From Blasia pusilla (taxonomy: Eukaryota): a stretch of 64,000 nucleotides of DNA. Under the pieces are notes generated by a model. The model saw only the letters and a program-made list of their open reading frames with translations. It ran no database searches and was not told the DNA's origin. This document shows positions 1,629-55,930 of the stretch, piece after piece; within the stretch, counting starts at the first letter, position 1; every line of letters starts with the position of its first letter. Location: NCBI GenBank assembly GCA_050084515.1, contig CM114271.1, positions 18,538,001 through 18,602,000 of the forward strand, in the 5' to 3' direction. A program made the translations under genes and the position numbers.

Positions 1629-1870
1629 AATCTCTCCGATCTTTCCTAAAAAGTTGAGACAGTTGTTGTGTGCATACACATCGCTCGCCCAACTTGCTGG
1701 TGTTTAGGTCCCTCTAACTGATAGCCATCTTTCCCTGCCTACCATGACATACATCTGTCAAACGCTCTGAGCAAGAAGGCCGAGTGGTCATGTAGCCCGA
1801 TCGTTAGTCGCCTTATTGTCATCCATGTTAGAGAACAAGTCAAAATCTAGAACTAGCTATCTTATGTACA

Positions 1871-2025
1871 TCACGGACATATCCATTGTCCCTCGAGATG
1901 CCTAATGAGAGGTGGCATCACACATGGCATATGCCATCCTCCCGACCACCCATAATAGACTAGCATAGTGGTTGCACCATGGGTGGAACCACACAACATA
2001 CATTGCAAGCATGTAGGAACTTTTG
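1871..2025 (-). pseudogene. PHD finger at the integrase C-terminus (degenerate)
   Basis: CMLCGSTHGATTMLVYYGWSGGWHMPCVMPPLIRHLEGQWICP matches a partly decayed C4HC3 PHD pattern; a better-preserved copy is at 55046-55183. Confidence 0.8.
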
Positions 2026-3329
2026 CTGAGCTCAGATCAACTATACCGTCTATGTCTAGAAGATGATATGGCACACAACTATGCATATGTTCCTTCCAAA
2101 CCATACCATCGTATCCCTCGAATAAGAGAAGAGCCGATGGTAAAATCTCACGCACTCTCAAGATAGTTTGCCCAGTAGTCACATCCAACGTCGTGGGTTT
2201 CATCTCCTGCAAGTTGACTTTATCTCCTTGATGAAACCTCCGAAGAGTAGGTAAAAAACCACCCCCCCTAATAGTCGCATACCTCAATGCATCTTGATAT
2301 TGGGCAATCGCCAAGTTCTCAAACGCCATGGGTATTACTCTCTGAAATAGCTCAGCCCTCTGAGAACATGCTTGCATCCATACATCCAGGTCATCAAGGT
2401 CAAGCACCTCACCAACATCTCGATGAATGGCCATAGGTAAATCTGGCTCTCGGCCATACAAAAGCAAGTACGGTAAGAAAGACGATAAGGATGCCTACGT
2501 GTTAAATTTGTATCCCATTGCCAACCACGGCAACAGGAGGTCCCAATATCCTACATGACCTCTCTACAAGCCATACTTGCATAATCCTCTCTTCATTTTA
2601 TGCAAAAAACGCTCCACGAGTCCATCCGCCTCATGATGATCTCACTAAGTAGTGCGGTGGTCGATGATTGCCTTATGACGTAAGGTCTAAAACTCTCCGC
2701 GAAACTCTATACTCTGGTGTTTCACCACCTTAGCAGATGCGCCATAATGACTCAACACTTGATCAAGGAAGGCATATGCTACTCTCTTACTTATTTTGTC
2801 AGGAAATGCAACCAACTCTATCCACTTCAAAGTCCCCAACCATCACAAACACATAACGACTATGGCGATCCGTCAAACGCAAAGGTCGTGCAAATTCCAA
2901 ACTCCATCTATAACCTAAAGCCATGAATCAAAGAGGATGTAACAGTGGAGTCTCACCATTGAACGATGCGCAGACTTTATCACACATCATACATCTGGCA
3001 ACAAACCGTTGAACGTCAATGTGCATGCCTCGCCACCAATACTAAATCTCGAGCAAGCTACACGTCCGCTTCACTCTAAAATGACCCAACTCCTCGTGGG
3101 CATAATGCACCAAATGTACTCTCTTCGAAGGATGAGGCACTACACACACTCTACGATCCTTCCAAACTAGCAATACATGTGACCCCTCCCATCGGAACCA
3201 TCTGGCTCCTTGTAGGATCCGATTCCACTCTCTAGCACCCAGTGTGCTTACGACGCTACCAATACACAAGTACTCCTAGAACACTCCATCGTCATGAATG
3301 TCTCGGCCACCTATCTTCTCCTCACTGGC

Positions 3330-4900
3330 CTATGGATCTAAGGACTCTCCATCACACCTTGCAACTGAAGTCTCAACAACTTGGCTCTCCATAGCCAACA
3401 AGCCCAAATAAGCTAACCCATGCCATCCTAGCACTAACTCCTCATTTCTCTCATCATGCCAACTAGCTATTGGAGTATTTCGCAGACCCGAGCATGGGTT
3501 ACTAATCAAACTATCTGCATCCTGGTTGAGCGTCCCAAGTCTATGCACCACCTGAAAGTCATACTTTTGCATCAAAAAGTGCCCACCTCGCAAGCTTCCA
3601 TGTAAGCTTGTTGGACTCCATCAACCACTTAAGTGGCTGATGATGAGTTATGATGGTAAAGGGGTTGTCGTATAGATAACGCTAGTAATGTGCGAGAGCC
3701 CCTACCGCAGCCAAGCACTCACCCTCATACGAACTATACTTTGCCTCTACAACATTGTTTGAGCGAATTGCGTAAGCCATCACAAACTCTCGACCATCAT
3801 CGTCATGCTTGGTGAACATGGCTCCAAGCCCCATCATGCTTGAATTGGTATACAATTGGAAAGGACGCCCCCTGACCGGTCTCCTCAAAATGGGGGCGGA
3901 CGCTAATTTGTCCTTGAGTTCTTGAAATGCTCTCTCTTGCTCATCCCTATAGTGCATGCTTCTCTTGATTCACCTTGGTCTGCAAGGTTAGCGGCTTTGC
4001 AATGGAACTGAAACGCTTGACGTACCATGATAGAAGTTTGCCAATCCTATGAATGCATGAACTCGACTTTCATCTCTAGGGCGTGGAATGCGTGAAATAG
4101 CCTCTACCTTCGTCTATTGCACACCAAGCCCCCTTGGGTATATCGTATGACCCAAGTACTCAATCTAGTCATAGAAGAACTTGCACTTGCTGGGATGTAG
4201 CTTAATCCCATGTTACTACAATCATCGAAACACCTCCTCTAGATGTCGCTCATGGTCCTCAACCGTGCTGCTATAGACCACGATGTCATCAATATAACAC
4301 CTAGCAAAATCGGGACCTCCCAAGATCCTATCCATGACACTCTGAAACTCAACCGAGGCCTTTTTAACCCAAAAGGTGAGAACTGCCACCCGCACAAACA
4401 ATCCTTCCCATGAGGATCGATGCCCCAAAATATCGTCTTCTGCCTGTCCTCTAATCTGATAGGTAGCTGATGGTTTTCGGCTCGAAGATCTTACCAAGTG
4501 AAGACCTTTGCATGCTTAATCCCATCAAAGATCTCCTCAAGGGTGGGCATGGCATACCTATCCAACTTTTTGTGCCGATTGATAGGTCGGTAATATCCAC
4601 ACATCCACCTATCCGTCCAGTTGGAATGCATATCCTTCTTAGCGAGCATGAGAGTGGCAAATGTATATTCTACATGGAAGATCTCCACTAGTCTTGCTCC
4701 AACCAAGTACTGGCTCCTTATTAGAGTCAAAGCCCTTTCCATGTCATTGTACTTGTAGGGTCCTTGGAAGATGGGTGTGTCACTCGACAACATAGTGCAC
4801 ATCCCTGGACCCTTCAACGTATCCAAATCCTACATGCTAAATGCAAAACATCTCCTATTACTCCTTAGGAGCTGATTTATCGAGCGTCACTCTTCTCGTG
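3330..4900 (-). pseudogene. Gypsy reverse transcriptase and RNase H (frameshifted)
   Basis: RMCGYYRPINR, YAMPTLEEIFD, CYIDDIVVYS, AFQELKDKLASAPIL, YSSYEGECLAAV, YDFQVVHRLGTLNQDADSL. Confidence 0.9.
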
Positions 4901-5279
4901 TGAATTTAGGGCCCATATCTTGCTCCCAAGTCTCCATCTTGATTTTGGTAGGACTCTCCAGTTTTCAGTGGCTGATATGCTACGACACGGTCTCTGAAAA
5001 TAGAACTCAACAACTCTCATGCTGCCAACTGCAAAATTTGATCTCCACTTGTTGTACCCAGAACCACACTCCATGTTATGGTTATCATCTTATGACATGC
5101 CTGCAAAACATCCCAAGAAGTCTAAGGGTGTCTCTCCAGAACATCCCAAGTGTGTCAATCTCGTCGGGTCTCGCCCCAAGCCACTACCTCAATCGTCTCG
5201 GTAGGTATGAGGCTCACCAACTCAACAACTATGATAAATCGCATCCGCAAACAATTTTGCTCAGCTACTCTGAAGCTGA

Positions 5280-6215
5280 AAATCCATGTCAAGAAGTTTA
5301 GGTCCATCGCCTGACCTAAGACATGACGTTGTGATGCCTCTCATAGTGACGATATTGCCATCACTCCTATGGGGAATCCCATCGCTCGCTCTCTCTTATC
5401 GACGTTGAGCTCCACCAACCACTGTTCCACATCATGCCAATTCAAGCCAGGTCCAGCCTCCTTAAATGCATAGGAAGCAGGAAATCTCATAAATGTGGGA
5501 AAGGCTCCCTGTGGCGATCCAATCCTGTTGACCTTAGTCAATGGCGCTCAATCATCATGCCTCACTTTCTGTTATCGATGACAAGAATCCAAAATCAAAT
5601 CCACGAACAAATCAGAGGGGTGCTCCACTCTAGCAGACGCCATCCGCAAAACCTCATATGGCACCAAGTTGGTCCACCAAAGACGTGGGCGATGTGCTTG
5701 TGAACCTACACTCTCCGCATCCAACAAAACTGCTAGGGCAATCCATGCGTACACCTCATGTGCAGTCGTCACCACGCAGGACCTTGAATCGCCCAAAATT
5801 GGCACATTCTCTAGACTGTATGTTGAAGGACTGATACTCCTATAGATGTTGCAAGACCCGAATCATCTCCTAGAACAAGTTGGACCGCGAGTCTCCTACT
5901 CCGCTATCCCTTCTTGGACCCTACTAGCCCTAATATCGCCAATCAGCAATGACCAAGTCTATGGTCCCTACTCGCTCCAAATCGTGCATCCCTAGCAATG
6001 AAATATCCCTTGGTAGGGAATCGAGTATGCGTAGATAGCGGACGCAGACAACAAGTTGGGAAAACTGAGGTGTTATTGCGCCGACATGGTGAAGTGAAGC
6101 GCACTTCTTAACATCATCAATCTCAACATATATGAACTTCTCTACGCGTACTCATGCCTGCTAAACAACACCTAACCGAGTGCTGATCCCTCCAAAGAGA
6201 TCCAACACCCGAAAA
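5280..6215 (-). pseudogene. C5-cytosine DNA methyltransferase domain embedded in Gypsy pol
   Basis: Manual - strand translation: motif I RVLDLFGGIS (6211-6183), II FIYVEID, III LPRDI, IV IDLVIADWRY*G (decayed GWPCQG, ~5962-5928), V DSRSNLF, VI LENVP (5814-5800), VIII GSQAHRPRLWW, IX ERAMGFP, X HVLGQAMD. Confidence 0.88.
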
Positions 6216-6779
6216 TCCTCCTCTGGGATGTGCCACACAATGGGTGTGGTATCCAAGGGCGTCATCATAGCACTTTGGGCTACCTTGGTTTCTCTGACCC
6301 GTCACACTCAGGTGCAAACGTCTCGCTCCATATGGTCTGCACATGCTCAATGGCTAAGCGTCAAAGCTCCTCACTCCAGCCCCAAAGTGGCACCTCTCCT
6401 CTATGGATAGATGTGGCAAACATGACACTCCTGTCCATAGAAATATCGAGAATAGGAGTATCCTCTAGATGGAGATGTCCCTCAATCAAATCAGTAGGCC
6501 AAGTGATGACTGAGCTAAATGTTGCTAAGGTTGCCATCTCTCCAGGCCGGCGCTCAATCACTCCACCAGTGAATCAAATGGGTAGTGAGCTAAGGCGCCC
6601 ATCACCTGACTGCCATCCTGGTATGTAGGACGTAGAGTCCTCTCACTAATCTTGGGAAAATCCCATCAAGTACAACATTGATCCACCAACCAGAATGTCT
6701 TTGGACTCTACATGAGTTAGTAACGCCTTGGCTCACACCTCGGACTGATCTGTAGGATGTATCGGGAGAGGCCTCACCA

Positions 6780-7149
6780 CGACCTCTTGTTGAGTGATAA
6801 ACTATGTGGTACTTACTCCACCCAAGGATGTATATATCCAAAATGGAAAATGCTCCACATCGGTCCTCGTCACGCCCAAACTTTTGAATGCTGCTTTCCC
6901 TGACATCGGGGATTGCACTCCTAAATCCAACAAGACACGCCACACACTAACAGCTCTACCTCCTAGACTCAGCAACTGGAAGAGATCTCCCCAATAATCA
7001 AGCAAAACAATGCCAAGAGAACCCATGGCACGCTCTATCGCGGGTCTAGCATGCATCTCCACCATCCTAGAAGCCGCCTGCCATGAATCTGACGTGGACG
7101 GCCTGAGCATCAACTCCTTGGGCAGGTCCATCACCTCCTCCGCAATCAC
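6780..7149 (-). pseudogene. Retropepsin-like aspartic protease of Gypsy family A
   Basis: RVLLDLGVQSPMSGK resembles the LLDSGA catalytic motif and lies between gag and DNMT/RT. Confidence 0.6.
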
Positions 7150-10129
7150 CTCTGAACACTATGCACAAACTCCAAATCCTTGCTCACATAGCATAAAGGC
7201 CGGTCAAAAAACCTGGACGGGCGGACCTCCCAAGGTCATACCATCAGAAGCTGAAAATAAAGGAGCGCGGTACACAATAGTGGCCGCCCCCAACAACGTG
7301 CTCGACACATGCTCCTTGTGAGCATCTCCAATAGCAGCCGTTGCTCTCGCTTCTCCCATCGCCCTTCGTGCCTACACACCAACCATATCACAAAATCTAT
7401 GAGAACTCTGATCAAGACCTATCGATAGGGTCCTCATTGCCTCGGACAATGTGAAGGACTGAGGAAGCCTAGTCTATTTCCTGGCTTTCCCTTGTTGTGG
7501 ATCCAACTTTGCGGCTCCTGCACAAGAAACGACTACGGCGGCCTCTATTTGGGCAACACCGCACATCCAATGAGGATCCTCCACATCTCTGGCACCTCCA
7601 TAAGACGTCGATGCGACAGATCCAGAATCGGATAACCTTAATGCCAAAGCTGCAATATGTTGTTGTAGCTACTGTTTCTGAGCTGCCATCCTAGCCTCAC
7701 GCTCGACCTCTCTCTCGAGGCATCTAGGTGGTGGGACTCTACCTCCTCCACGTGCAACTCCACCATCCCCTCGGGTGAATCCAACTCCTCATCCCCCAAC
7801 GAGAGCACCTGGTGTTCAACCTGTAGGCCCACCCGGACCGGAAACTCCCTGTGAGGCCCCCTCATGCCCTCGGTCCGAACGTAACTCAGGGTGCAAGTTG
7901 AAACACTTGTTGCATGTGTGACCGTACCTCACACCGATAACCTTATGGTGCAACACCATCTCCTCCCCCATGCTGAGGCACGCGACCATGACCCTTATGA
8001 GTGCCATCGGGGACACTCACAAGGCAAGGGAGCAAAGTTGCGCCGCCTCATGCCAAAAGGTTCAACAAAGAGAGAATGAGCTCTCAACCTCTCTCTCCTT
8101 GAGGTATCCCGGCTTCCCTCTCCAAAAGTCTATCCTCGGTAACGTATGTGCGCATGTCACCTCCTTGGCTCTTGACCTACTGTAGGGGGTCAAGAGCCAC
8201 TTCCCAAAGTGGAAAGTCAACTCTTCCAAACATGCAAACTTACCGTGAATAGTAAGTCTCCCATGTTTCAGGTTTCCCAGGACATGAGCAGGTCATCGTC
8301 GACCTCCTGAGCGCCTCCTCTTGTACTCGCGAAGGCGCTCCACCAAATCTCTCAGGTCTATCCAAAAAAATCATGATTGTACATGTACTATGTTTTGCTC
8401 ATAGCTTTAAGAGAGTCAAACCTAGGAGTAGTCTTTATATTAGGTTTAGATGATACTCTTTATAGTAGATCTAGTAGGCATCTCTGCCAACATGAAACTG
8501 GAATCTTCTAAAAATTAAGGATAGATGTCTTGAGCAAAGGCTCAAAGGGCAGGTCGTCCTCCTTCTTTGGAATGAGTTTTGAACTTAAGGCAAAAAGGCC
8601 TGCTTCATTCTCACATACCATAGCCGCAAAAAAAAAAACCTCCCAACATCACAACATCAATAGAGAAAACCCATATGGGTGATATATGGCACTCGTTGCC
8701 CCCAAAAATGTACTGGATGGGTCTTCTCTTGAGCATCATCAATAGGTTGTTGTACTCGCTTTTCCCATCGCTCATCATACATGCATACCAACAACATCAC
8801 GCCTTTGGGGACCTAGTCATGACCTATGCATACCAAGCTTGCATATGGAAGAAGTTAGTGTCTGCGGAAACGTCGATCTGGTGCTCACCACCCCTTAATT
8901 TCTCATCCCCCTGATCCGCACATTTTTGTTCCTTCCTCCCCCCACCTCCACTCCCTTCCCCATTATTTCCCTGCCCACCCTCGCCCTGCCTTCTACCATG
9001 AGTTGTAAGTGTGGATCCATCCGCTTGCTATTCATGTCTGTGGACATGTTTAAACTTGTCCATGCATGTCCGCTTTAATTTTGCAACCAAGATCAATAGT
9101 TCCTTATTACCTTAAACAACATCAATATTTTAGAGAGCCTAGTTTGCTTCTTGGATTCTTCTTTCTGTGGATCTAAATCTATTATGGCTTCACGTCTGAT
9201 ATGATTGCCACTATCTACGTTACTCTTCACATCCAATTCAACCAAGATTCTCCATATCCCTCTCTGTTCCAAACAAAAAAAAAAAACCAACGCCGCAGCA
9301 GGAGATAAACTCTATGTCATCGTTGTTGTTGTAACAACTCTATGTAAGGGGGATTTCCACATTCACGCGTTGGGTCTCTCTTGACTTGTCTAGGTGGTGG
9401 ATCTCTACCTCCTCTACAAGAAAATCCACTTCCCCTGTGGGCATATCCGCCTACTCATCCACCTAAGAGACCACCTAATGTACGACCTTAGGCTCTACCT
9501 ATAACTCCAACTCCCTTTTGTTCCCTCTCCAACACCTGATCCAAATATAGCTCTAATGTAAACCGAAAATTCTTTCTTGTATATGGCCAAAGCGCTAGCA
9601 TTTCTCACATTGGAAAATTCAGGTTTGAGGCCCATTAGGTCCCACCAAATACAACACTTATCTACTACCATGATGGGTGCAATCTTTCTGGCGCTAGCCT
9701 CCCCCACATGCCCAAAAAATAACTCCTTGTTGTTATTGACTTGCATACAATATACGCCATCCATTTTTGTTGCACTAGTTCACCATAACTTCCCTGCACA
9801 TACTCTTGGTTTCATACTCCTGTCTCAAACTACATATGGTTGTACTTGTGGTATGGATGCCACTTGAGGTATCTGTCACATCTTTTAGGATGGTTCGACG
9901 AGTATTGACATGAATTGACCCTCCGTGGAGATCAATCAGATGATATGCTCATAACGTGGGGGATGAGTTGTAAAGGCCTTAGATAACCTAAAAGAGCAAG
10001 TTTCCCTTTTATTTTGGCTCATTTGGAACCATATGATAGCACTTAACATTTCCGGAAAGCTCAAATTATGGGACCCAATTGTCTTTGCAAATTGGGAAAT
10101 GGCTTTTGACCCCTTAAAGTAGGTCAACT

Positions 10130-10749: not shown

Positions 10750-11225
10750 GCTTTACATCTCCAAAGTAGTAAAGCATTTTCACAATATATCGTTCGCATA
10801 CATGTCGGTACACAACATACATCATTGTCACTGAACATACACTTCACCGCGCACAATCTCATGCTAACTCATGGCATCCAAACATCAAGCCATTCAGTAC
10901 CAAAATATTTGCAATAACTCAATCAAATATTGATCACACACACACACACACACACACACTCTCTCTCTCTCTGAAATCAACCCCACTCTCCTAATGAGAG
11001 GCTTGGATTACACACACCAACTAAGGAGGAGTATAGCTCTGTTGCCTCATGCCAAGAGGTTTAACAAAGATAAAATGAGCTCCCTCCCCGGTCATCTCCT
11101 TTGTTGTTGATCAGCTGTAGCGGATCAAGGGTCACTTCCCAAAATAGGAAGTCAACTATATAAAAATGGTTATTTTCTCGAAATAGTAAGTTACTCAATA
11201 TGGTTCCAAATGAGCCAAAATGTTG
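10750..11225 (-). mobile_element. Family-A LTR fragments flanking a (CA)n(CT)n microsatellite (~10935-10972)
   Basis: The reverse complement of 10914-10790 matches the LTR start at 28380; 11225-10980 matches the LTR middle. Confidence 0.65.
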
Positions 11226-11239
11226 ATGTTCCTTGATCT

Positions 11240-14200
11240 CTACCTTATCCTAGAGCGGATATGGACCATTGACTTGGTCATTTATGGTTCGTCATGTTAG
11301 GGCCAGTCAAGTCTTGGACGAGGTAGCGGATTAGCTGATTCTCGGTCTTGGTTGTTTTGGGAGATGATGCAGATCTTGCAACACTTGCAGGAGCATCAGT
11401 CTCGTCCTCCAACAAACATTATGGAGAATGTAGCGATTTTGAGCGATTCAAGGTCTCGTGTGTTGACAAGTGCACATCATGTGCGCGCATGAATTGGCCT
11501 GGCAGTTTTGTTGGATGCGGCGAGTGTGGGTTCACAAGCACATTGGCCGCGTCTTTGGTGGACCAATTTGGTGCTACACAAGGTATTGCGGAGGGCATAT
11601 GCGAGAGTGGAGCGCCCCTGTGATTTGTTGGTGGATTTTATATTGGATCTAGGCCGGCAATCACAGGTAGTGAGGCTAGATGCTCGACCGCCATTGACTG
11701 TGGTTAACACGATTGGCAAGCCACGGGCATCCTTTCCCCGATTAGCGAGTTTCTCTACTTCCTATGCATTTAAGGAGGGCGGACCTGCCTTGCTTTGAGA
11801 TGATCAAGTATAGAGGTTGGTGGAGCCAATGAGCGAGCAATGGGATTCCCCACAAGAGTGATGCGAGTATCGTCATTATCAGAGGCATCATGACGTCATG
11901 TCTTGGGTTAGGCAATGGATCTAAACTGCTTGACATGGATTTTCAGCTAAGGAGTAACAGAGTAGTGTCGTTTGAGGATGCGAGACATCACAACTGTTGG
12001 ATTGGTGAGCCCAATGCCTACCAAGACGGTTCAGGATGTGGTTGGGAGCGAGACCTCAAGAGATCGATATACCAAAGGTGATCGGGAGACACACCCTTGG
12101 ACTTTGTGGGATGTTTTTCGGATACGCCAAGAGATGGTAGTCACAACATCGAGCGTGGTTCCGGGGGTGCACATGGAGATCCGATTTTGCAAATGGCTGC
12201 AAGGAAGGAGTCAAGTTCTTTTGACCGAGACGAAGTTGCACCATAGCAACCACCGCCATCCGCGTCAGAGAGTCATACCGTAGTCACGATGGAGACTTGG
12301 GAGCGAGATATGGGCCGTAAGTTGAAAGGAGAAGAGACGGGCCGGATACAACAGTTCCTTAGGAGTTATAAGAGTTGTTTTGCGTTTAGTATGGATGATT
12401 GGGGTATGCTAAAGGGTTTAGGGATCGACATTGAGTTGTTGAGTGACACGTCGATCTTTCGATAAACCTATTGGTACAATGACATGGAGAGGGCTCTGGT
12501 TCAGAGTAGGAGCCAAGACTTGGTTGGAGCAGGACTAGTGGAGATGTACCATGGAGAGTTTATATCTAGCACTATCATGTCCGCCAAGAAGGATGTACAT
12601 GGCAATTGGACGCATAAGCGGATGTGTGGAGATTATCGACCCATCAATCGGCAAACAAAGTTGGATAGGTATGCCATGCCCATTCCTGAGGAGATCTTTG
12701 ATGCTATTGGGTATGCAAAGATCTTCAGTATGTAAGATCTTTGAGTTTAATACCATTCGCTGCCTTTCAGATAGGAGGACAGGTAGAAGACGGTATTTTG
12801 GGGCATCGATCCTCATAGGAAGGATTGCTTATACGAGTGGCTGTACTTACCATTAGGATTAAAGAACGCCTCGGTTAATTTTGAGAGGGTAATGGATAGA
12901 ATCTTGTCAAGTTGGGATGTTCCTAGATGTTATCTTGATGACATTGAAGTCTTTAGTACTGCAGTTGAGGAGCATGAGGACATCTAGAGGAGGTGTACGT
13001 CAAGGGTTTCAGTTTGATTGCGAAGCCGCTGACCTTGCTCACCTTGTTGCACTGGGGGATGAGCATGAGAGAGCAATTTCATATGCTCAAGTAGAGCTTC
13101 ACGTGCGTGCCCATATTGCGATCAAGAGGCGTCTTTTCCTATTGCATACCAATTGGAGCATGTTGGGGCTTGGAGTCGTGCTCACCCAACATGATGTTGA
13201 TGGTAGAGAGTTCATCGTGGCTTACGCTAGTCGCTCGAACAACGCTGCACATTCAAAATATAGCTAGTATGAGGGTGAGTTCTTGGCTGCAGTGTGGATT
13301 GTCCCACATTTTAGATGTTATCTATTCGAAAATCCCTTTACCATCATTACTGATCATCAGCCACTTAAGTGATTGATGGATTCCAGAAGCTTGCAAGGTG
13401 GGCTCTTTTGTTGTAGGAGTATGACTTTGAGGTGGTGCATGAGCCTGGAAGGCTCAACCAAAATGTTGATGGTTTCAACCGTACTGCGTGCCCGAGTGAG
13501 GGAGAGAGGACTAGAGCTCGTTGGCATGGTGAGAGTGATGAGGAGTTGGTGCCAGGATGGCATGCGTCAACCTAGTTGGGCTTGTTGCATTGGCTATGGA
13601 GAGCCTGATTGCTAAGACTTCGATGGCCAGATCTCATGGAGAGTCCTTAGATCTAGAGGCCAAGGTGAGAAGACTAGTGCCTCATCCTTTGCAAAGAGCA
13701 TGTTTGGTGGGTCATGCCCACGAGGAATAGGGTCATTTTGGAGTGAAGCGGACGTACAGCTTGCTCCACATTCAGTATTTGTGGCGAGGCATGTAGAATG
13801 ACGTTCAGTAGTTTGTTACCACATGTATGGTGTGTGATGAAGTTTGAGCATCGTTCAATGCTGCGACTCCACGTTTGCATCCACTTTCGATCATGGGTTT
13901 AGATTATAGATGGACTTTGGATTTTGCATGACCTTTGCCTTTTGGAGCACCATAGTCGCTATGTGTTGGTGATCGTCGAGCACTTCTCCAAGTGGATAGA
14001 GTTGGTTGCATTGCCCAACAAAGCGAGTGAGGGAGTAGCATATGCCTTCCTAGATCGCATGCTAAGTTATTACGGCAGACTAGCTAAGGTGTAGACATAT
14101 TAGGGTACAAAGTTCCGCAGGGAGTTTTAGGCCTTGTGTGATGAGGCACTAATCGACCACCACACTACTTCACGAGATGATCCTCACACGGATGGACTAG

Positions 14201-15220
14201 TGGAGCGGGTTGTCCAAACAGTGGAGAGAGGACTACGCAAGTATGGCTTGCAAAGAGGTCGCCTCAAAGATCGGGACCTCATGTTGGCTTGGTTAGCGAT
14301 GGGATATAGATTCATCATGGTGGCATCCTTAGCGTCTTTCTCACCATACTTGCTTTTGTATGGCGGAGAGCCAGATTTACCTGCAACCATTCGTTGAAAT
14401 GTTAGTGACGTTTTGAACCTTGAAGACTTTCATGTATGGATGCGAGCATGTTCTTAAAAGGCTTAGTTGTTTCCGAGAGTGATGCTCATGGCGTTTAAGA
14501 ACTTGGCAATTGCACAACATTGGGATACATTGAGGTATGCGACAATTCAGGGAGGTATTTTAGGTCATTATCATTACTATTTTAGGTAGGTATCATTTTG
14601 AGTATATGATCCACTTTCTATTTTTGGTAAATGGGCCTTCACCTCCTACATCAGGTCAAGAGCCAAGTAGTTGACTTGCGAGCATAGGTTACCCTGGAGA
14701 GAGCTTGGGAGAAAGGAGGATTGTTCCTCAAGGAGAGATAGCTTGAGAGCTCAGTCTCTCTTTGTTTAACCTCTTGGCATGAGTCGACGGAGCGATGGTC
14801 TTGTTTGCCTTCTGTGTGTAACCTAAGCCTCAATAGGAGAGTGGGTTTGGTTTGACATTGAGAGAGACATGTGAGAGTGCACACATTTAAAAGCTATGGT
14901 GTTGAGAGAGATTGGATCTTATTTTACGAAGAGAGAATGAGTGAATGAAAGAGCTTTCTGGGAGAGCTCGCTGGTTGCTTGATGTTCGGTGCAGGTTGGG
15001 CATTGTGTTCCCCGCTTCATGGCTCATAGGAGTGCTCACTTGAGCAAGAGCCTTATGAGATTGGTCTTTTGCTTTACTGAGTTGTTGTGAGGGAGCGTGG
15101 CACGCGGAAGCGCTCCCCAAATTTTGATAAGAATTGAGTACTGGTGTGGATTGCTCCATGTCGGTGCTCTCGGGAGCACCATGTAGCTTGATGATTTATG
15201 TTCTCACAAGTTTAACATTT
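11240..15220 (+). mobile_element. 5'-truncated Gypsy family A copy: DNMT (motifs IV-X), RT, RNase H, integrase, partial 3' LTR
   Basis: IDLVIYGSSC*G (~11268-11304), DSRSWLFWE, MENVA (~11421), GSQAHWPRLWWTNL, HVLGLGNG/HVLG*AMD (~11900), RMCGDYRPINR, YASRSNN, DGLVERVVQTVERGL. LTR-like sequence 14570-15220 matches 28670-29020. Confidence 0.88.
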
Positions 15221-16699: not shown

Positions 16700-17420
16700 T
16701 CCAACGTACACATTGAGTGGTCTTACCAGTTGGGATTACGAGATGGACGTTTGGGATAGAAGACCGCATAGGCTTTCGGATCCTGTAGGCACTATAGAGC
16801 TACAAGACTTCATTGCAAATTTTAGGAGTTGGTGTAACTCACAAGAGGCTAAGAACTCTAGAGAGTTCCTAGTCCCTTGGATAATTACCAAGAGTTGTCC
16901 TACATAATTGCCTTGGAGATTGAGGCATGGCGACTCTACTATGACCCACACTATGTGTCATGGACAAAGCCATTCCTAGATGAGGAGGAGGAGTCATGAG
17001 AGGCTACTCCCTCTTGCACTAGTGATGTTTTAGGAGGGGTCACTCGTCCTGGTTCACTTGCACCATCTAGTCGGGTTCGTCCCAAGTTCAGCCCCGTGGT
17101 TAAGTCCTTTGCTCAGTTGAGGGCGAGCTACTAAGGGTACGCACAGAGAAGTTGCAGAGTGTTCACGACTTCCAGAGGGTTTGCGTGAGGCTTACACTCG
17201 CGTACGCCGATTCATCAACGTCAGTCAGGGAGTGAAAGAGGCTCAGGCTATCCAGTCATGGTACGGGATGCTCGACCGGACCTTACGAACACGGGTGCAA
17301 GAGGGGATGCTTCTTATGAATACCTCCCCTACATTGAGAGATGTTTTTAGGATGGCCAAGAACAGTGAGCGCAACATGGCGGAGGAGAGCGTAGCCACCA
17401 TGGGATCTGAGCAAGAGTAG
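16700..17420 (+). pseudogene. Retrotransposon gag fragment
   Basis: ELQDFIANFRSWC and LREAYTRVRRFINVSQGVKEAQAIQSWYGMLD resemble a Gypsy capsid region; family assignment is uncertain. Confidence 0.5.
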
Positions 17421-27989: not shown

Positions 27990-29118
27990 CATTCAACTAG
28001 TCCAAGGCAGCACATTGGAGGACCAACCAATAGTTCTTGTAGGCTTGCGTTGTATGTTGTGTGGCTCTGCTCGTGGTATGGCCACGATGCTAGTCTATGA
28101 TGGATTTTCGAGAGGTTGGCATAAGGCATGTCTAACGCCACCTCTCACTAGGGTTCCCTGGGGAGGATGGATATGTCCCAAATGTACATTGAAGAGATAC
28201 TAGGTAGGTTTTGATTCCAACTTTTTCTATGACATGGATAACAAGAAGGTGACTAACGATGGGGCGATATGAGCACCCGGCCTTTCTACTCCTACCGTCG
28301 TAGAGATGTATGTCGTGGTAGGTAGGGATAGAGGGCTAGATGGAGTTAGAAGGACCTAACCAGCAGATAGGGGGGCCATTGGAAATATTTTAGTTCTTCT
28401 TGTCTCGTTGTTTGGATTTCATGAGCTAGCATCGGATCGTGCGTGTTTGTGTGTGTGCTCAGTGACAGCGGTGTATGTTGTGTAGCAATATGTATACGCA
28501 CAACAGATGTCACGTCTTTTAGGATAGATCGGTGAGATCCAGTAGAACGCCTTTATGAGTAGTGGATGAAAGGCTAAGTAGGTTGAGGATGACCTATTGA
28601 GGCCTCGGGAAACCTGAGAGAGCAGATTTCCCCTTCGTTTCGGCTCATTTGGAGCCATCTTGAGGAACTTACTATTTTAGGTAAGTATCATTTTAAGTAT
28701 ATGATTAACTTTCTATTTTTATTTAGTGGCCTTTGACCTCCTACATCAGGTCAAGAGACAAGGAGGTGACTTGGGATAATAGATTACCATGGAGAGAGCT
28801 CGGAAGAGGGGAGGGGTATACCTTAAAGAGAAAGCGCTTGAGAGCTCTTTGTGTCTTTGTTGAACCTCTTGGCATGAGGCAGCGGAGTTATGGTCCCTTC
28901 CCTTGTGAGTGTTACTAAAGCCTCTCATAAGGACAGTGGGTTTGGTTTGACATGAGAGAGAGTGCACACCTTTGAGAGCTAGGGTGTGAGATGATGTACA
29001 GAGAGATTTGATCTTACTTTATTGGACATATTTTAGTACTTCTTGTCTCGTTGTTTGGATGCCATGAGTTAGCATGGGATCGTGCGTGTTTGTGTGTGTG
29101 TGTGTGTGTATGCGCACG
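27990..29118 (+). mobile_element. Gypsy family A 3' fragment: PHD, PPT, LTR, then a restarted LTR
   Basis: CMLCGSARGMATMLVYDGFSRGWHKACLTPPLTRVPWGGWICPKC (28015-28203). PPT AGATAGGGGGGCCA ~28365-28378. LTR from ~28380; the LTR start recurs at ~29023-29118. Confidence 0.8.
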
Positions 29119-42600: not shown

Positions 42601-44194
42601 AATGGTCAGCTTCACAATTGTGCCATCAAGTTGATGTAGTTTGTAAGTGGCATCGTCAAAAGCAAAGACTATAACGTATGAACCAAACCAACGACGTGCA
42701 AACTTCTTAATTATATTGTGCTGGTTATCGAGGCTATTATTGTGCACCAAGACCCAATCTCCTTCTCTTATAGACTCCTTCTAAAATTGATGAGTTTTGT
42801 CAAAGCATTCCTTATTTTTCCAATCTTGCTTCCTTCATTTTGACTAATGCTTCTGCAATAAATTTTTTTGCCGCTCTAGCTGTTGCATTCGAAGTGGTAG
42901 GAGCTCTTCCCTTTCGGCCCTATCTTCCCACGGTAAACCCATGCAAGTGGGAATATCTCCTTCTGCTAGCATTATCGGCTTTTGACCTGTCATTAACTTT
43001 GTAGGCATGAACCTTATAACGGTGCTATGAGTGCTTCTATATGCCCATAAAGAAAATGGAAGTAATCTTGGCCAATTAGCATAACGCTCTCCACACGCCT
43101 TCACTAATGCTTGAATGATTGGCGGATGTCCTCTTTCTGTTTGCCTCCGAATTCATGGAGGTTGTTAGTCTCAGTTGGACTCCATACCTCTTGAAGGACT
43201 CTCGTGCTTCCTCCGCATTCAACTCTCTTCTATCTGCACGGATTCTCCCAACAGTCCCATATCGAGCAACTCTATCCTCTAGAAAAAAATGACATATAGG
43301 CTCTATTGTTTTATTCATAAAGCCCTCGCTTCTACAAAGTTGGACAACTCTTCTCGTATTAGGACCAGGTAGCGCATTCCCAAACAACCTAGTGGCATAG
43401 CAACTAAATCTATAACCCATTGATGATGATTAGACAAAGGATACATGGGTTAAAGTCCATCACCCTGATTTTAGAGTGAAATTGACATTCAACATATGAC
43501 CCAACACATCCCTCAACATCCTTGGACACGCCTTTCCACCAATCCTTGTCTTTCATCTTGGTGAAAGTTTCCCAAGTACCTTTGTGTCTTGCCCATAAAG
43601 AATGGTGAAATTCTTTGAGCACCTACACTTTTGTCCTATTGTCATCCACCACCCTCAAGGGCATCCCATCTTTCCTCTATGGCCTTTTCCAAAGATATCC
43701 ATCTTGTAGTAGATAGCCATACGCCTTATGCCGAATCTCCTTGAAGAACTTATCTCTTCATCCTTCGTCTCTTTACAGAGTGCTTAAATAGCGCCCAATT
43801 TCTTTTAACCTTCCCTTATACAAATTCTCTTTGAAGGCTAGAACATCATCTATTACACCCTGTTATCGCGATGATCCTTGCCACACATATTTATCATCCT
43901 CATCTATCTGAACTGCTTCTATATCTTCCAAACTACCCCCACCAATCCTAACCACCAATCAAGACTACTTTTGCTTTATTAAAGCGCCAATCCCATTTTT
44001 TTACTTTTTCTAATCCCATCTTTTATTTATTATCTTTTTTTTCCTTAAGTTGGGCCTGTGCAAATGAGTCATCCTAAAGAGGTTTAAACATGGGAATTTT
44101 ATTTTCCTAGGCTAATTTAGTTAATACTTATAAAACTCTCTCTAATACTTAATGATATAGGAGGTTGGATAGTTGGTGATTTTACTATACGATA
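39700..44194 (-). mobile_element. Gypsy family B tandem structure: partial LTR, deleted pol/integrase, full LTR, gag
   Basis: Partial LTR 44194-43925. Integrase 43700-42517 (KKFARRWFGSYVI, WPRLLPFSLWAYR). LTR 42442-41160. gag from ~41097: MTTFGST...KKLGRFDGRNIAKYIREY. Confidence 0.85.
41160..42442 (-). repeat. Family-B LTR (1283 bp)
   Basis: Perfect 8-bp terminal inverted repeat TGTCGTAT...ATACGACA; PPT TTGGAGGGGCTCAA upstream. Confidence 0.9.
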
Positions 44195-44889
44195 CCGCTT
44201 TAGTGGTACGAGTAAACTTCTACTACCACTCGTACACCCATCGACTTTTGCAAAATCCCATACCACCCCATCTTAACTCATGTTGAGTTTAATCCGCTCA
44301 CACCACTCAAAGACCATCTTCAACGTGGGCCTCGTCGTATAAACCAACATTGTATCTGAGACTCTTTTCTATAACTCCCGAGCTAGAAACCTAAACCAAT
44401 ACTCCAACAATTTTGCCTCACTCAGTCCATATGTAGCAATGATCAATTATTGCATGTGTGTGAACGCATCTCATAAACTCTCACTCCATGTACGCTTAAA
44501 ATCATGGAGGTGCGGTAAGAGGAGAGGAAGAGAGGAAGAGAGGAGAGAGGAAACTACCTTCAACCTATATATATACTGTTTTTTGAAGAGAGTTTCCGTT
44601 GGGTTGAAGAGAGGAAACTTTTTGTTTGAATTTTTTTTGCTCTTTTTTGTTCATATATTAAGCAGTCCCAATTTTTTTTTTCCTCTTCCATATTTTGGCA
44701 AACCCTCTGAGTCCGACGAGTTGCAAATTGTAGAAAATTTAGAAAAGTGAAAAATCAGTGGAATCATAAGTGTGGAACCAATCACTTGTTCCATCCAAGG
44801 TCTGGAAAAAATCTATCATTTGTCCGGGGCTGAATAGAGTTAAAGCTCAAAGTGAAGGTTAAGGAAAAATAAAAGTCCAATCTAAAACC

Positions 44890-46834: not shown

Positions 46835-48339
46835 GGGCAGAAATTGCTCATTTCCGGTTTCTCATTTCGCGATCTCCATTCCTCTCTCTCCTGCGTAGCA
46901 ACTAATCAGATACCAAGGGGCGTTTCATCGCGAGTCGATACGAGGGAACCAGAGAGAGACGGTTCGACCGAAGGAGAGCGAGACGGTTCGACAGAATGAT
47001 CCCGAGACGATTCGAGCTACCCATCAAGGCTATTCATCTCCACATCAGCAAGGCGACTGATCAAGCGATTCATCGTGGACATAGGTGGAGGCATTTCCAG
47101 AAAAAATGACAAGGAAAAAATCACAAGCCAACAAGTCTGGGAGCTTCACTCCGAAGTCCGTTATGACTCCTGCGTCAGCATCTACAGTCGTTCGGCGAAT
47201 GAAATTAGGCAGCAGGAAATCGAGCAGCGGGAAAGGGAAGCGGAGATGCACAACCATGAGCTTCTTGCAAGATGTGTTCAAGAGGCGCTCGATTGACAGA
47301 ACGTAGAGGCTGAGACGTCGCAGGCCTTGAAGAAAAGGATCGCCGACGAAAAGAGAGAAAAGAAGCGTCTGGACGCTTTGGTGAGGAGAACAAAATTGGC
47401 TAAAGCGAGGAGGGAAAAAGCGATAGCCATTGACAACAGCCCTGCCCGTCCAAGCGAAAGTGTTGAGATGCGGGAAATATCCCCGATGAAGTCCGGGGAC
47501 ACAATCAACATAGCAGAAACGCCGAAGTTCAAATCACGGACAACGAGGTCATGAGGACCCCCAACATGGAGATGGTGGACATTGCCAAAGAAGCTGGAGA
47601 GCGGTCATTCTGGTTTCCAAGCCGGGCGGAAGACATCGTCCTCTATCGGATCGACGATTTCCTAGTCGATTTGCCAACTTCTGCCTCACACAAGTTGGCT
47701 GGTCAAGAAACCGACCCAATTTTCGAGCGGGTAAGAGAGGATCTAGGTTTTTTGAATTATGTGAATTGCAATTCATTGGGAATTCAAGGTAGCTTATTGA
47801 TCTTGTCCTGGTTTTGACTGGTGGTAAAGCAAATGGTTCTCATGGAGGGCCACAACGCCACGAGGATTCCACTCTGCCGATTGGGGACAATGGAATACGT
47901 CAGCAAAATTCAATCCCACGAGGACATCGCGAAGCTTAAACAATTGGCGGCGACAGCATCCTACGTTGACAGCTTTCCTCCCTTCTATGTTCAGCCTTAC
48001 GACGAGCATGGAACCCAAGCCCTGGTTACGGAGGAGGACTTGGATAAGCTTGACACATTGTGGAGGATGAGAGACCAGGATGTCAGAAGGCAAGTAGAGG
48101 GCACAGAATTCAGCTGGATGAGGAATCTGTATTTCTTCATATGGGATGGAAATCACAGGTTCATGGCGTGGACCAAGTTTGCAGAGGAGCGTCCCTACTC
48201 CTTGGAGGCACATTTTTGCGTGAAGGGAGTGGTCCTTCATCCATTCCCTCATCACATGGCGACGGTGGAGATGGCAATGCATGCCATGAACACGTGAGTA
48301 TCTTCTTGCAGGGTCGGGACTCTTGTTGGGATGGTTTTG

Positions 48340-49625: not shown

Positions 49626-50692
49626 CAAAGTTAGTAATTGAAAAAGTTCTCTAGGGTCAAGCCGACTTCTTTAGTTGTTGACATTGTTTCCAACGTGCTT
49701 CTTTACAGATGGACCACTCCTACGTGTACTGCTTCGTTCGGCCCGAGCACAATTTCCAGGTGTTCAAGATCCAGGCTCCTGTGGATCCATGCTTAGATGG
49801 GTACAGCTTAGATAGTTTGTACAATTCCCCCCCGGGAATTTACATGCAAGACAGTACCCCACTTCTGGGAGGAAGGAAAAAATCGCCAACCCTGATGCAA
49901 ATGCTCATCGAGCTCTGCTCAAGGCCGGGTGACTTGGTGTTCGACTTAGTGGGACTTTCAGGGGCAAGTATCAAAGGCGCCTGGCAGAGTGGCAGGAACA
50001 TTCTCTGCCTCGAGGGAATGCAAGAACTGTTGGACCTTTGCAAGGAGGCAAAGGCAGAATACGAAAGGCTCGTTGGGGTGTACAACTCTCCACCGAAGCC
50101 GAGAGCTCCGGTTCCAGACCCACCGTTGGTATTGACTCCATCGTCACTTCCAACGATTCCAAAAATCGGGAGGGCAAGGCCGAAAGTAATTTTGCAGGAG
50201 CTCTTGGAGATGACGAGTGAGTTCAAAGAACTCAACGACCCAGCTTGACTGTAGCGTTTGGAGTCGGGAGTTTTTTATGATGAGGCAAAAGATTTCATAG
50301 AATAGATCAAATGTACAGTTCGGAGCTTTTTTCGGATGATATAAAGAGATGATTTTTTCGAACGATGGTGGTGCTTGTTAAAGTTTTCTGAACATTTTTT
50401 ATGTCTTTTCCAATATGATCGTCTATGTACTCCGGACTTCTATTTTGCAACCAGTCGGATTTCTCCTCCTTGCAACTTTTCACTTTTTGACGACAACGCC
50501 TTTTTACCACTTCCAAGCAACCTGTCGGATTCGACAGGTTTCCTGATCGGACTCTTTCCATGTTGGTCCAACTTAAGAGGCAGTCTGGCAGGCTTCTTCC
50601 CTTGGCACCTTCCCCTCAACTCGTAAAGGCAGGCGTGGGCTTTTTTCTTCTCTCAAACGTGTTGGATTCCTACTACTTGTGCAATTGCCATC

Positions 50693-53859: not shown

Positions 53860-55930
53860 CAACTAAATGGGACACATGTGTTGCGAGTTTGGGAGGATGG
53901 TAGAGTACGTGAGCACGTGCTCATCCTTCACAAAGAGCACGTTTGGTGCATCATGCCCATGAGGAGTTGGGTGATTTTGAAGTGCAGCGGACGTGCAACT
54001 TTCCCTAGAGTATGGTGGCGAGGCACGTAGACTAAAATTTAGCAATTGGTCACCAGATGCATGATGTGTGATCAGGTCCATATATCATTCAATGCTCCGA
54101 CTCCACACTTACATCCAATTCCGATCATGGGTCTAGGTTATAGATAGAGTTTGGATTTTGCAGGACCTTTAACCTTGACAGAGCGCCATAGTCGTTATGT
54201 GTTGGTGATGGTTGAGCACTTCTCAAAGTGGAAAGAGTTGGTTGCATTTCCTGGAAAAGTGAGTGAAGGAGTAGCGTATGCCTTCCTAGATTGAGTGTTG
54301 AGTCATTACAATACATAAACTGGGGTGTTGAGAGACCAAGGTACGGAGTTTCGCGGGGAGTTTCAGGCCTTGTGTGATCAGGCGCTGATCGACCACTGCA
54401 CCACTTCGCGAGAGCATGTTGAGGCAAATGGACTAGCGGAGAGGGTTGTGCAGACGGTAAAGAGAGGATTACCTATGGCTTGTAGAGAGGTCGCCTAGGA
54501 TATTGGGACCTCTAGTTTCCGTGGTTGGCGATGGAATATAAATTCATCACGCAGGCATCCTTAGCATCTTTCTCACCATTCTTGCTACTTTATGGCCGAG
54601 AGCCTGATTTACCTACGAGCATTCATTGAGATGTCGGTGAGGTGTTGAACCTTGATGACCCTGATGTATGGATGCAAGCATGTTCTCTAAGGGTTGAGTT
54701 ATTTTGGGGAGTGATGCCCATGGCATTCGAGAGCTTGGTGATTGCGCAACATTAGGATACGTACGAGGTATGCGACCATTCATGTATATGGTGATCGATC
54801 GACTATCCGGAGGTTCCATCAGGGAGACTATGGCAACTTGTAGCAGACGGCATCCACGACGTTGGATGTGACTGCAAGGCGCACTATCTTGAGAGTGCAT
54901 GAGGTTTTGCCATCTGGCGTTCTTTTATTGGAGGGATGCAATGGTATTATTTGGAAGGACCATGTGCGTAATTGTACGCCATGTCACCTTCCTAAGAGTG
55001 ATGATACAGTTGATTCGAGTTTAGCAGTAGTTCCTACAAGCTTGCAATGTATGTTGTGTGATTCTGCTCGTGGTGCAGCTATTATGCTAGTATGTGATGG
55101 ATGTTCGAGAGGGTGGCACATGGCATGTCTGACACCACCTTGCACTAGGATTCCTCGGGGATGATGGATGTATCCTAGATGTACGTAGAGTACGTAGTCT
55201 AGATTTTAACTTGTGTTTGTGACATGGATGACAAGTAGGCGACTAATGATGGGGCCACATGAGCACCCGACCTTTTTGTTCTTAGCGTTCGAGAGATGTA
55301 TGTTATGGTAGGTAGGGATAGATGGCTATTTGGAGTTAGAGGGATGTAACCAGTAGCTAGGGGGCGATTGGAGATATTTTGGTACTCCTCGTCTCGTTAT
55401 TTGGATGCCATGAATTTGTATGGGATCATGTGTGTTTGCATGTGTGTTTGGTGACAATGATGTATGTTGTGTAGCGATGTATATGCGCACGACATTTGTC
55501 ACATCTTTTAGGATAGATCGGAGGAATCTAGTAGAGCACCTTTGGAGATACTAAAGGATAACATCATGAGTTTGAGGATGCCCTGTTGACGCCACAGGTA
55601 ACCTGCGAGAGCAGGTTTCCCCTTCGTTTCGGCCTATTTGGAGCCATATTGAGAAACTTATTATTTTGGGTAAATTACCATTTTTGGTTTAGTTGAAACT
55701 TTGGGAAGTGGCCCTTTACCTACTACAACAGTTTAAGAGCCAAGGAGATGATATGCGATCATAGATTACCGTGGAGAGGGCTTGGGAGAAGGAAGGGGGT
55801 ATACCTTGAAGAGAGAGAGCTTGAAAACTCAAACTCATTCTCTCTTTGTTGAACCTCTTGGCATGAGGCGGAGGAGCTATGGTCCTCCTTTCCTTGTGTG
55901 TGTAATCCAAGCCTCTCATTAGGAGAATGG
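53860..55930 (+). mobile_element. Gypsy family A 3' fragment: integrase, PHD, PPT, partial LTR
   Basis: Integrase fragments homologous to 3200-2050. PHD CMLCDSARGAAIMLVCDGCSRGWHMACLTPPCTRIPRG*WMYPRC (~55046-55183). PPT ~55358-55367; LTR from ~55369. Confidence 0.88.

Follow-up and report, generated by a model that had tools for sequence, protein, structure and literature searches.

Does a Ty3/Gypsy retrotransposon in a land plant carry its own cytosine methyltransferase and, if so, what does the enzyme do for the element? Retrotransposons with a cytosine methyltransferase, their hosts' own silencing enzyme, have been described in dinoflagellates and in one charophyte alga. The window analysed here is a 64,000-nucleotide stretch of contig CM114271.1 of Blasia pusilla, in which the original prediction had placed C5-cytosine methyltransferase (DNMT) motifs inside a Ty3/Gypsy element at 5280..6215. 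The best explanation we can propose, to which we give a probability of roughly 85%, is that positions 8368-1868 on the minus strand (copy A) and 11250-14819 on the plus strand (copy B) are dead copies of a family of Gypsy elements that carry a DNMT3-type enzyme (Gypsy-DNMT3).

Copy A consists, in order, of an LTR-like segment, an N-terminally deleted gag, protease (PR), a DNMT3-type methyltransferase, an in-frame stop, reverse transcriptase (RT), RNase H, integrase and a PHD finger (Table 1). Its order of PR, RT, RNase H and integrase is that of Ty3/Gypsy elements and is collinear with the Marchantia protein P0006 and with ORF2 of an intact relative, L045. A second Marchantia protein, P0005, extends the collinearity into RT (4934-4560), confirming the predicted position of the DNMT between protease and RT. 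The gag-protease part, into which ORF 6802-7158 falls, is 35% identical to P0006 residues 339-846 with 13 in-frame stops (tblastn) and has LLDLG at the protease active site (approximately 6933-6919). The N-terminal third of gag, equivalent to P0006 residues 1-338, is absent. The part from RT to the PHD finger is 42-55% identical to residues 12-1034 of L045 ORF2, with 21 in-frame stops and three frame changes (tblastn). Pfam searches of copy A identified RT_RNaseH_2 at 6.7e-21 and weak matches to RVT_1, Integrase_H2C2 and PHD. The PHD finger of the integrase tail (1868-2000, minus strand) has an E-value of 0.03 in ORF 1871-2494.

The LTR-like segment of copy A recurs in three other fragments, each time behind the end of the integrase (14613-14819, 28517-28932 and 55650-55903). 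A matching 3' LTR of copy A was looked for and not found, and no LTR pair flanking one and the same copy was seen in the window. A DIRS-like inverted-repeat structure was rejected: the inverted match between 10998-11082 and 14747-14831 fits better with a third fragment on the minus strand, made up of an LTR piece (11044-11157) and a gag piece (9493-9375).

Table 1. Positions of the features of copies A and B in the window (asterisk, stop codon).
Feature	Position	Strand	Basis or remark
Copy A, whole element	~8368-1868	-	Ty3/Gypsy LTR retrotransposon, decayed
Copy A, LTR-like segment 5' of gag (putative 5' LTR)	7975..8368	-	Repeat comparison within the window; ends approximate
Copy A, C-terminal part of gag (zinc knuckle remnant) and protease	6310..7929	-	tblastn, Marchantia P0006 residues 339-846
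Copy A, decayed DNMT3-type C5 cytosine methyltransferase domain with tail	5086..6271	-	tblastn, motif reading
Copy A, N-terminal half of DNMT	6271-5828	-	45% identity to Marchantia P0006 (gag-PR-DNMT, 1278 aa)
Copy A, motif I (LDLFGGIST)	6205-6179	-	
Copy A, motif IV remnant (DLVIADWRY*G)	5947-5927	-	
Copy A, C-terminal half of DNMT	5820-5086	-	51% identity to Marchantia P0006
Copy A, ENV (LENV)	5811-5803	-	
Copy A, GQAMD	5316-5302	-	
Copy A, in-frame TAG at DNMT/RT junction	4980..4982	-	Homologous to the conserved ORF1 stop
Copy A, RT-RNase H-integrase-PHD	1868..4964	-	tblastn, L045 ORF2 residues 12-1034
Copy A, RT	4964-4341	-	
Copy A, RNase H	4380-3574	-	
Copy A, integrase	3608-2829	-	
Copy A, integrase C-terminus and PHD finger	2827-1868	-	
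Copy B, whole	11250-14819	+	5'-truncated second copy
Copy B, DNMT	11250..12142	+	tblastn; 5' end cut just before motif IV
Copy B, motif IV remnant (DLVIYGSSC*G)	11280-11300	+	
Copy B, in-frame TAG at DNMT/RT junction	12244..12246	+	Followed by CAA CCA; fits UAG-CAR-YYA
Copy B, RT-RNase H-integrase	12277..14556	+	
Copy B, 3' LTR-like segment	14613-14819	+	

Read on the minus strand with stops replaced by X, frame 5800-6400 of copy A contains LDLFGGIST, YVEID, DLVIADWRY*G and RSNLF*EMIRVL (stops given here as asterisks). Beyond a frame change near 5825, frame 5155-5961 continues with LENV, QAHRPRLWW, ERAMGFP and GQAMD. Aligned to intact relatives and to DNMT3A, these sequences represent blocks I, II, IV, V, VI, VIII, IX and X in canonical, non-permuted order, numbered by the usual convention. 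The C-terminal DNMT piece matched 11 proteins at E <= 0.001 among 5.8 billion. The best match was a protein of Calypogeia fissa (57% identity, E 1.2e-69), followed by Marchantia polymorpha proteins, and the N-terminal piece aligned to the same Calypogeia protein over 149 residues (48% identity, E 2e-40). Judged by these alignments the likeness is far above chance, and the motifs lie where they had been predicted, on the minus strand. A check against Pfam PF00145 (gathering score 22 bits) divided the window from its relatives: five ORF pieces and three read-through frames of the copy A DNMT region gave no match, but the gathering score was passed by ten of the 11 first matches, which carry GWPCQG and ENV, and by ORF1 of the intact loci L045 (51.1 bits) and L044 (46.2 bits). 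Lack of a PF00145 match had been set as a refuting outcome for the original prediction; on it the window copy fails, and only the intact relatives come through.

Searched alone against PDB sequences, the DNMT pieces of the window matched only DNMT3A/B/C, weakly (E 0.25-1). A profile of the family gave much stronger matches to DNMT3A (2.4e-18), DNMT3C (3e-17) and DNMT3B (1e-15) than to M.HaeIII (4e-8), tobacco DRM (5e-8), DRM2 (1e-4) or DNMT2 (3e-3). M.HhaI was also far behind DNMT3, and DNMT1 was not matched at E <= 0.01. We also modelled the L045 domain (pLDDT 65, pTM 0.73); its top Foldseek matches were all DNMT3A/3B/3C (E 3e-14 to approximately 2e-12), with a target-normalised TM of approximately 0.7 against isolated methyltransferase-domain chains. 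By profile and predicted fold, the family DNMT is therefore assigned to the DNMT3 class, closer to it than to DNMT1, DNMT2, DRM or the bacterial enzymes. Animal DNMT3A/3B/3C give the best profile matches (2.4e-18 to 1e-13) as well as the best fold matches, and share the motif order with PC and ENV. However, the family is only about 20-22% identical to them, lacks PWWP and ADD, is embedded in a retrotransposon polyprotein, and has a longer region between motifs VIII and IX, which is modelled at low confidence. No PWWP or ADD family of Pfam was found in the 11 proteins or in the L044 and L045 frames, which contain gag, protease, RT and integrase domains instead.

A search with the Marchantia DNMT region retrieved 58 proteins, including 15 Marchantia polymorpha gene models (several of them 90-98% identical to one another), one protein of Calypogeia and one of Sphagnum fallax; a single match labelled as a bacterial MAG is probably misbinned. 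ORF1 is intact in Marchantia Mp_4g09160. A profile search of 1.84 billion representatives returned 490 matches at E <= 1e-30. We also compared 80 metagenome loci, which are 66-69% identical to copy A at the DNA level; most are decayed, and an open frame of at least 428 aa spans the DNMT domain in seven. L045 and L044 each have an ORF1 (gag with CCHC, protease, DNMT) and an ORF2, in which Pfam identifies RVT_1, RNase H, Integrase_H2C2, rve and PHD in L045 (PHD finger at residues 990-1034, 40.6 bits) and the full set in L044 too. An LTR search found no terminal repeats in the L044 and L045 contigs, which probably end before the LTRs.

The phylogeny of the DNMT was reconstructed from 122 rows (quick IQ-TREE run, unrooted, with SH-aLRT support only). 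Copies A and B are sisters (support 100) within a clade of 17 rows (99) that contains Calypogeia, eight Marchantia rows and a few others. All 45 gag-PR-DNMT rows form one clade (97), and a separate clade of 70 rows (93) consists of RT-RNase H-DNMT-integrase-PHD proteins. It is plausible, by this tree only, that the window copies are of liverwort type. Together with the intact L044 and L045, which carry the DNMT, the single gag-PR-DNMT clade indicates that the family regularly includes this segment. Its matches come from the liverworts Marchantia and Calypogeia, from the moss Sphagnum and from many environmental contigs. The predicted extension of the range to land plants is plausible, if indirectly, in so far as the window copies group with Calypogeia and Marchantia, but it was already latent in annotated public proteins. 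Because the land-plant sequences were public, the finding extends a known kind of system and describes it more sharply, without adding a new kind.

In L045 and L044 the two ORFs are in the same frame and are separated by one TAG. Intact members with PCQ and ENV in frame with RT, as had been sought, hence exist as far as the frame is concerned, but with one in-frame UAG before RT. The junction reads TAG CAG TTA in L045 (L045:5083-5091) and TAG CAA TCA in L044 (L044:4661-4669). Across 49 places with an ORF2 start, CAR follows the first upstream in-frame stop at 37 (25 TAG, 11 TAA and one TGA). The complete CAR-YYA context occurs at six of these 37; most have CAA CCC instead. We assume that these departures and the 11 TAA stops are due to decay in dead copies. 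In the window, ORF 12247-12465 begins directly behind the junction TAG of copy B. The TAG of copy A is followed by decayed codons (CAT ATC) and stands 14 codons before METWE, the same spacing as in copy B. The Marchantia gene models treat the junction differently: P0006 ends at the stop, and P0005 and P0020 jump over it, which we read as skipping it by predicted introns. UAG-CAR-YYA is a readthrough signal of tobamoviruses in plant cells, according to the accessible part of PMC3159437. As there, a single in-frame UAG precedes the polymerase part in the family, and the codons behind it are CAA or CAG and then pyrimidine-rich ones. Unlike the tobamoviruses described in that text (PMC3159437), it is an LTR retrotransposon and not an RNA virus, and it mostly has CAA CCC rather than YYA. 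The sequence of the junction suggests that the UAG between DNMT and RT is a leaky readthrough stop.

These features are consistent with the following mechanism. ORF1 of intact members would be translated into a Gag-PR-DNMT polyprotein, and occasional readthrough of the leaky UAG (UAG-CAR-YYN) would extend it to RT-RH-IN-PHD. Because the DNMT lies ahead of the stop, in the Gag-PR frame, it would be made in Gag-like amounts and would probably be packaged in the virus-like particle. There it might methylate the new cDNA of the element de novo, so that the insertion would arrive already methylated; this step is a guess, to which we give slightly less than even odds. The PHD finger of the integrase, at the place where chromoviruses carry their chromodomain, is a possible histone-reading module and would read histone tails in the choice of a target.

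The same PHD finger suggests work at the level of chromatin. The substrate of the enzyme could be host chromatin, where the element inserts or nearby, or resident copies reached in trans, instead of the element's own cDNA; the element might in this way damp its own transcription or mimic host marks at the target. The original prediction had already named the insertion site as an alternative. The sequence does not tell cDNA from chromatin as the substrate. However, a DNMT in the Gag-PR frame would be expected to be abundant and packaged, not delivered with the integrase. We consider action on chromatin unlikely.

It is more doubtful still that the family DNMT is not a working DNA methyltransferase at all but a structural, DNA-binding, chromatin-tethering or RNA-acting module with a non-catalytic role in assembly or targeting. 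According to the available part of PMC5890265, the DNMT domain of a related element, KnitGypsy-Dnmt3, gave no DNA methylation in yeast; human DNMT3B failed in the same assay, and the authors called the result inconclusive. RNA methylation is raised in that text for a LINE-borne DNMT (PMC5890265). A mere scaffold, however, would not need the residues that are invariant in the relatives, namely GWPCQ, E-N-V and the A-H-R-x-R block (11/11 rows in alignment A1, 6/6 in alignment A2). Selection on the coding sequence also argues against it. dN/dS, calculated by the Nei-Gojobori method with our own script for intact copies only (in the dead window copies the ratio would have no meaning), is 0.138 for the DNMT of L045 and L046 (dS 0.26), 0.126 for L045 and L044, and 0.104 for L046 and L044. 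This was one of the checks proposed with the original prediction, and all three intact pairs fall below 0.2. The values for RT, RNase H and integrase of the same copies are approximately 0.03-0.04. On these ratios, the DNMT of intact members is under purifying selection.

Broken repeats form a patchwork across the window and copy A is full of stops, as might be expected if nested insertion or misassembly had brought the DNMT stretch into the element, either as a pseudogene of a host DNMT3 or as an unrelated fragment. This is hardly credible and we regard it as refuted: the order gag-PR-DNMT-stop-RT recurs in both window copies, in proteins of Marchantia, Calypogeia and Sphagnum, and in independent contigs by the dozen, the frames are uninterrupted in L044 and L045, and no PWWP or ADD lies alongside.

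How far the two copies have decayed is clear from their reading frames. The DNMT of copy A retains its full extent, as the claim of a complete domain implied, but it is broken by 12 in-frame stops (seven TAG, four TGA and one TAA) and by two frame changes, near 6300 and 5825. Over the element as a whole, the tblastn matches contain 46 in-frame stops, and the frame changes at least five times. Of the 140 DNMT columns that are invariant in the family, copy A keeps 101. Copy B keeps 78 of 112 and has eight in-frame stops in its DNMT (tblastn). ENV is retained in both, and PCQ reads R-Y-stop in copy A and S-C-stop in copy B. The motif IV remnant of copy A is A-D-W-R-Y-stop-G, so its catalytic cysteine is gone, replaced by tyrosine. 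Copy B does read IYGSSC*G, as noted earlier. The idea that comparing the two copies rebuilds the catalytic GWPCQG fails, since both have lost P and Q; only the relatives show the motif.

Copies A and B are 78% identical (K2P 0.26, ti/tv 1.23). They have one stop in common, at the Q of PCQ, against 12 private to copy A and eight private to copy B. Nearly all stops being private, the copies decayed separately, and we dropped the possibility that a dead master was copied and the inactivating mutations share their ancestry. The codon in common is TAG in both (5932-5930, minus strand; 11298-11300, plus strand) and was either inherited or arose in parallel, through C-to-T change of a CAG. That recoding or an unusual genetic code keeps the window copy a working methyltransferase is practically out of the question and is refuted by the sequence: all motif blocks are recognisable in order, but the DNMT stops are of all three kinds, nearly all are private, frame changes intervene and the catalytic cysteine is lost. 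Both copies are relics without coding capacity and long dead, so nothing at this locus methylates anything. The region is a graveyard of the Gypsy-DNMT family; other remains of this family or of related elements, consisting of gag pieces, integrase ends and LTR pieces, lie at 9375-9493 (minus strand), 11044-11157, 16764-17399 (plus), 28028-28932 (plus), 44147-44503 (minus) and 53869-55903 (plus). Among public sequencing runs, four of DNA contained 5-8% of the sampled sequence words, and no RNA run containing them was listed.

The closest described system is KnitGypsy-Dnmt3 of Klebsormidium nitens, reported, in the part of the paper available to us, as a Gypsy element with a non-rearranged DNMT3, conserved catalytic residues and Ka/Ks < 0.2 (de Mendoza et al. 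2018, PMC5890265). The existence of a DNMT-bearing retrotransposon in Klebsormidium, on which the original prediction had drawn, is thereby supported (PMC5890265). Both systems have a Gypsy-borne, non-rearranged DNMT3 under similar constraint (Ka/Ks < 0.2 there, 0.10-0.14 in the intact relatives here). They differ in the host, a charophyte there and liverworts and a moss among the named relatives here. They also differ in the place of the DNMT, which is "in the Pol polyprotein ORF" in that text and ends the gag-PR frame ahead of a UAG here, and in the repeats, DIRS-like there and, by look, ordinary direct LTR pieces here (PMC5890265). No protein named Klebsormidium was among the 11, 58 and 88 matches of our protein searches; the nearest protein cluster is labelled no more closely than Streptophyta. 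Later literature speaks of "streptophytes (Gypsy-DNMT3)" in general. Outside subscription papers, our literature search found no paper on Gypsy-DNMT3 elements in liverworts, mosses or Marchantia, and the accessible part of the supplement of a 2025 survey does not mention Marchantia (PMC12344493).

Elements of the Gypsy-DNMT3 kind thus also populate bryophyte genomes, including that of the model Marchantia polymorpha, and what is new in detail is the place of the enzyme, which is encoded with Gag, ahead of a stop that is probably read through. Range and position together offer an experimental handle on what the enzyme does for the element. A bolder account joins these points into an old streptophyte Gypsy-DNMT3 lineage that survived into land plants, is young and possibly active in Marchantia polymorpha, and has a packaged, Gag-side DNMT that methylates cDNA before integration. 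As a whole this is improbable; if it were true, the question of why a transposon carries the silencing enzyme of its host would be directly testable in a tractable plant.

A second group of elements, found as metagenome proteins (P0036, P0046 and P0055), has a homologous DNMT (35-41% identity, E 1e-45 to 1e-65) and shares the integrase with the PHD finger at its C-terminus. In contrast to the family described here, its DNMT lies between RNase H and integrase, an order confirmed by Pfam, and it falls in a clade separate from the gag-PR-DNMT rows. Proteins of this abundant group (P0036, P0046, P0055 and P0062) extend C-terminally by approximately 350 further residues that match nothing in Pfam and in which DPW-x-G and A-P-P-L strings are, by eye, reminiscent of amino-methyltransferase motifs. 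Elsewhere in the window, two plus-strand ORFs lie approximately 1.4 kb apart. The first (47818-48297) has a D-G-N-H-R string, and the second (49682-50248) resembles Pfam N6_N4_Mtase weakly, scoring 20.7 bits (E 4e-4) where the threshold is 26.7. Liverworts have reportedly acquired a bacterial 4mC methyltransferase (cited in the accessible text of PMC12344493), and the two ORFs may be what is left of a gene for an N4/N6 DNA methylase.
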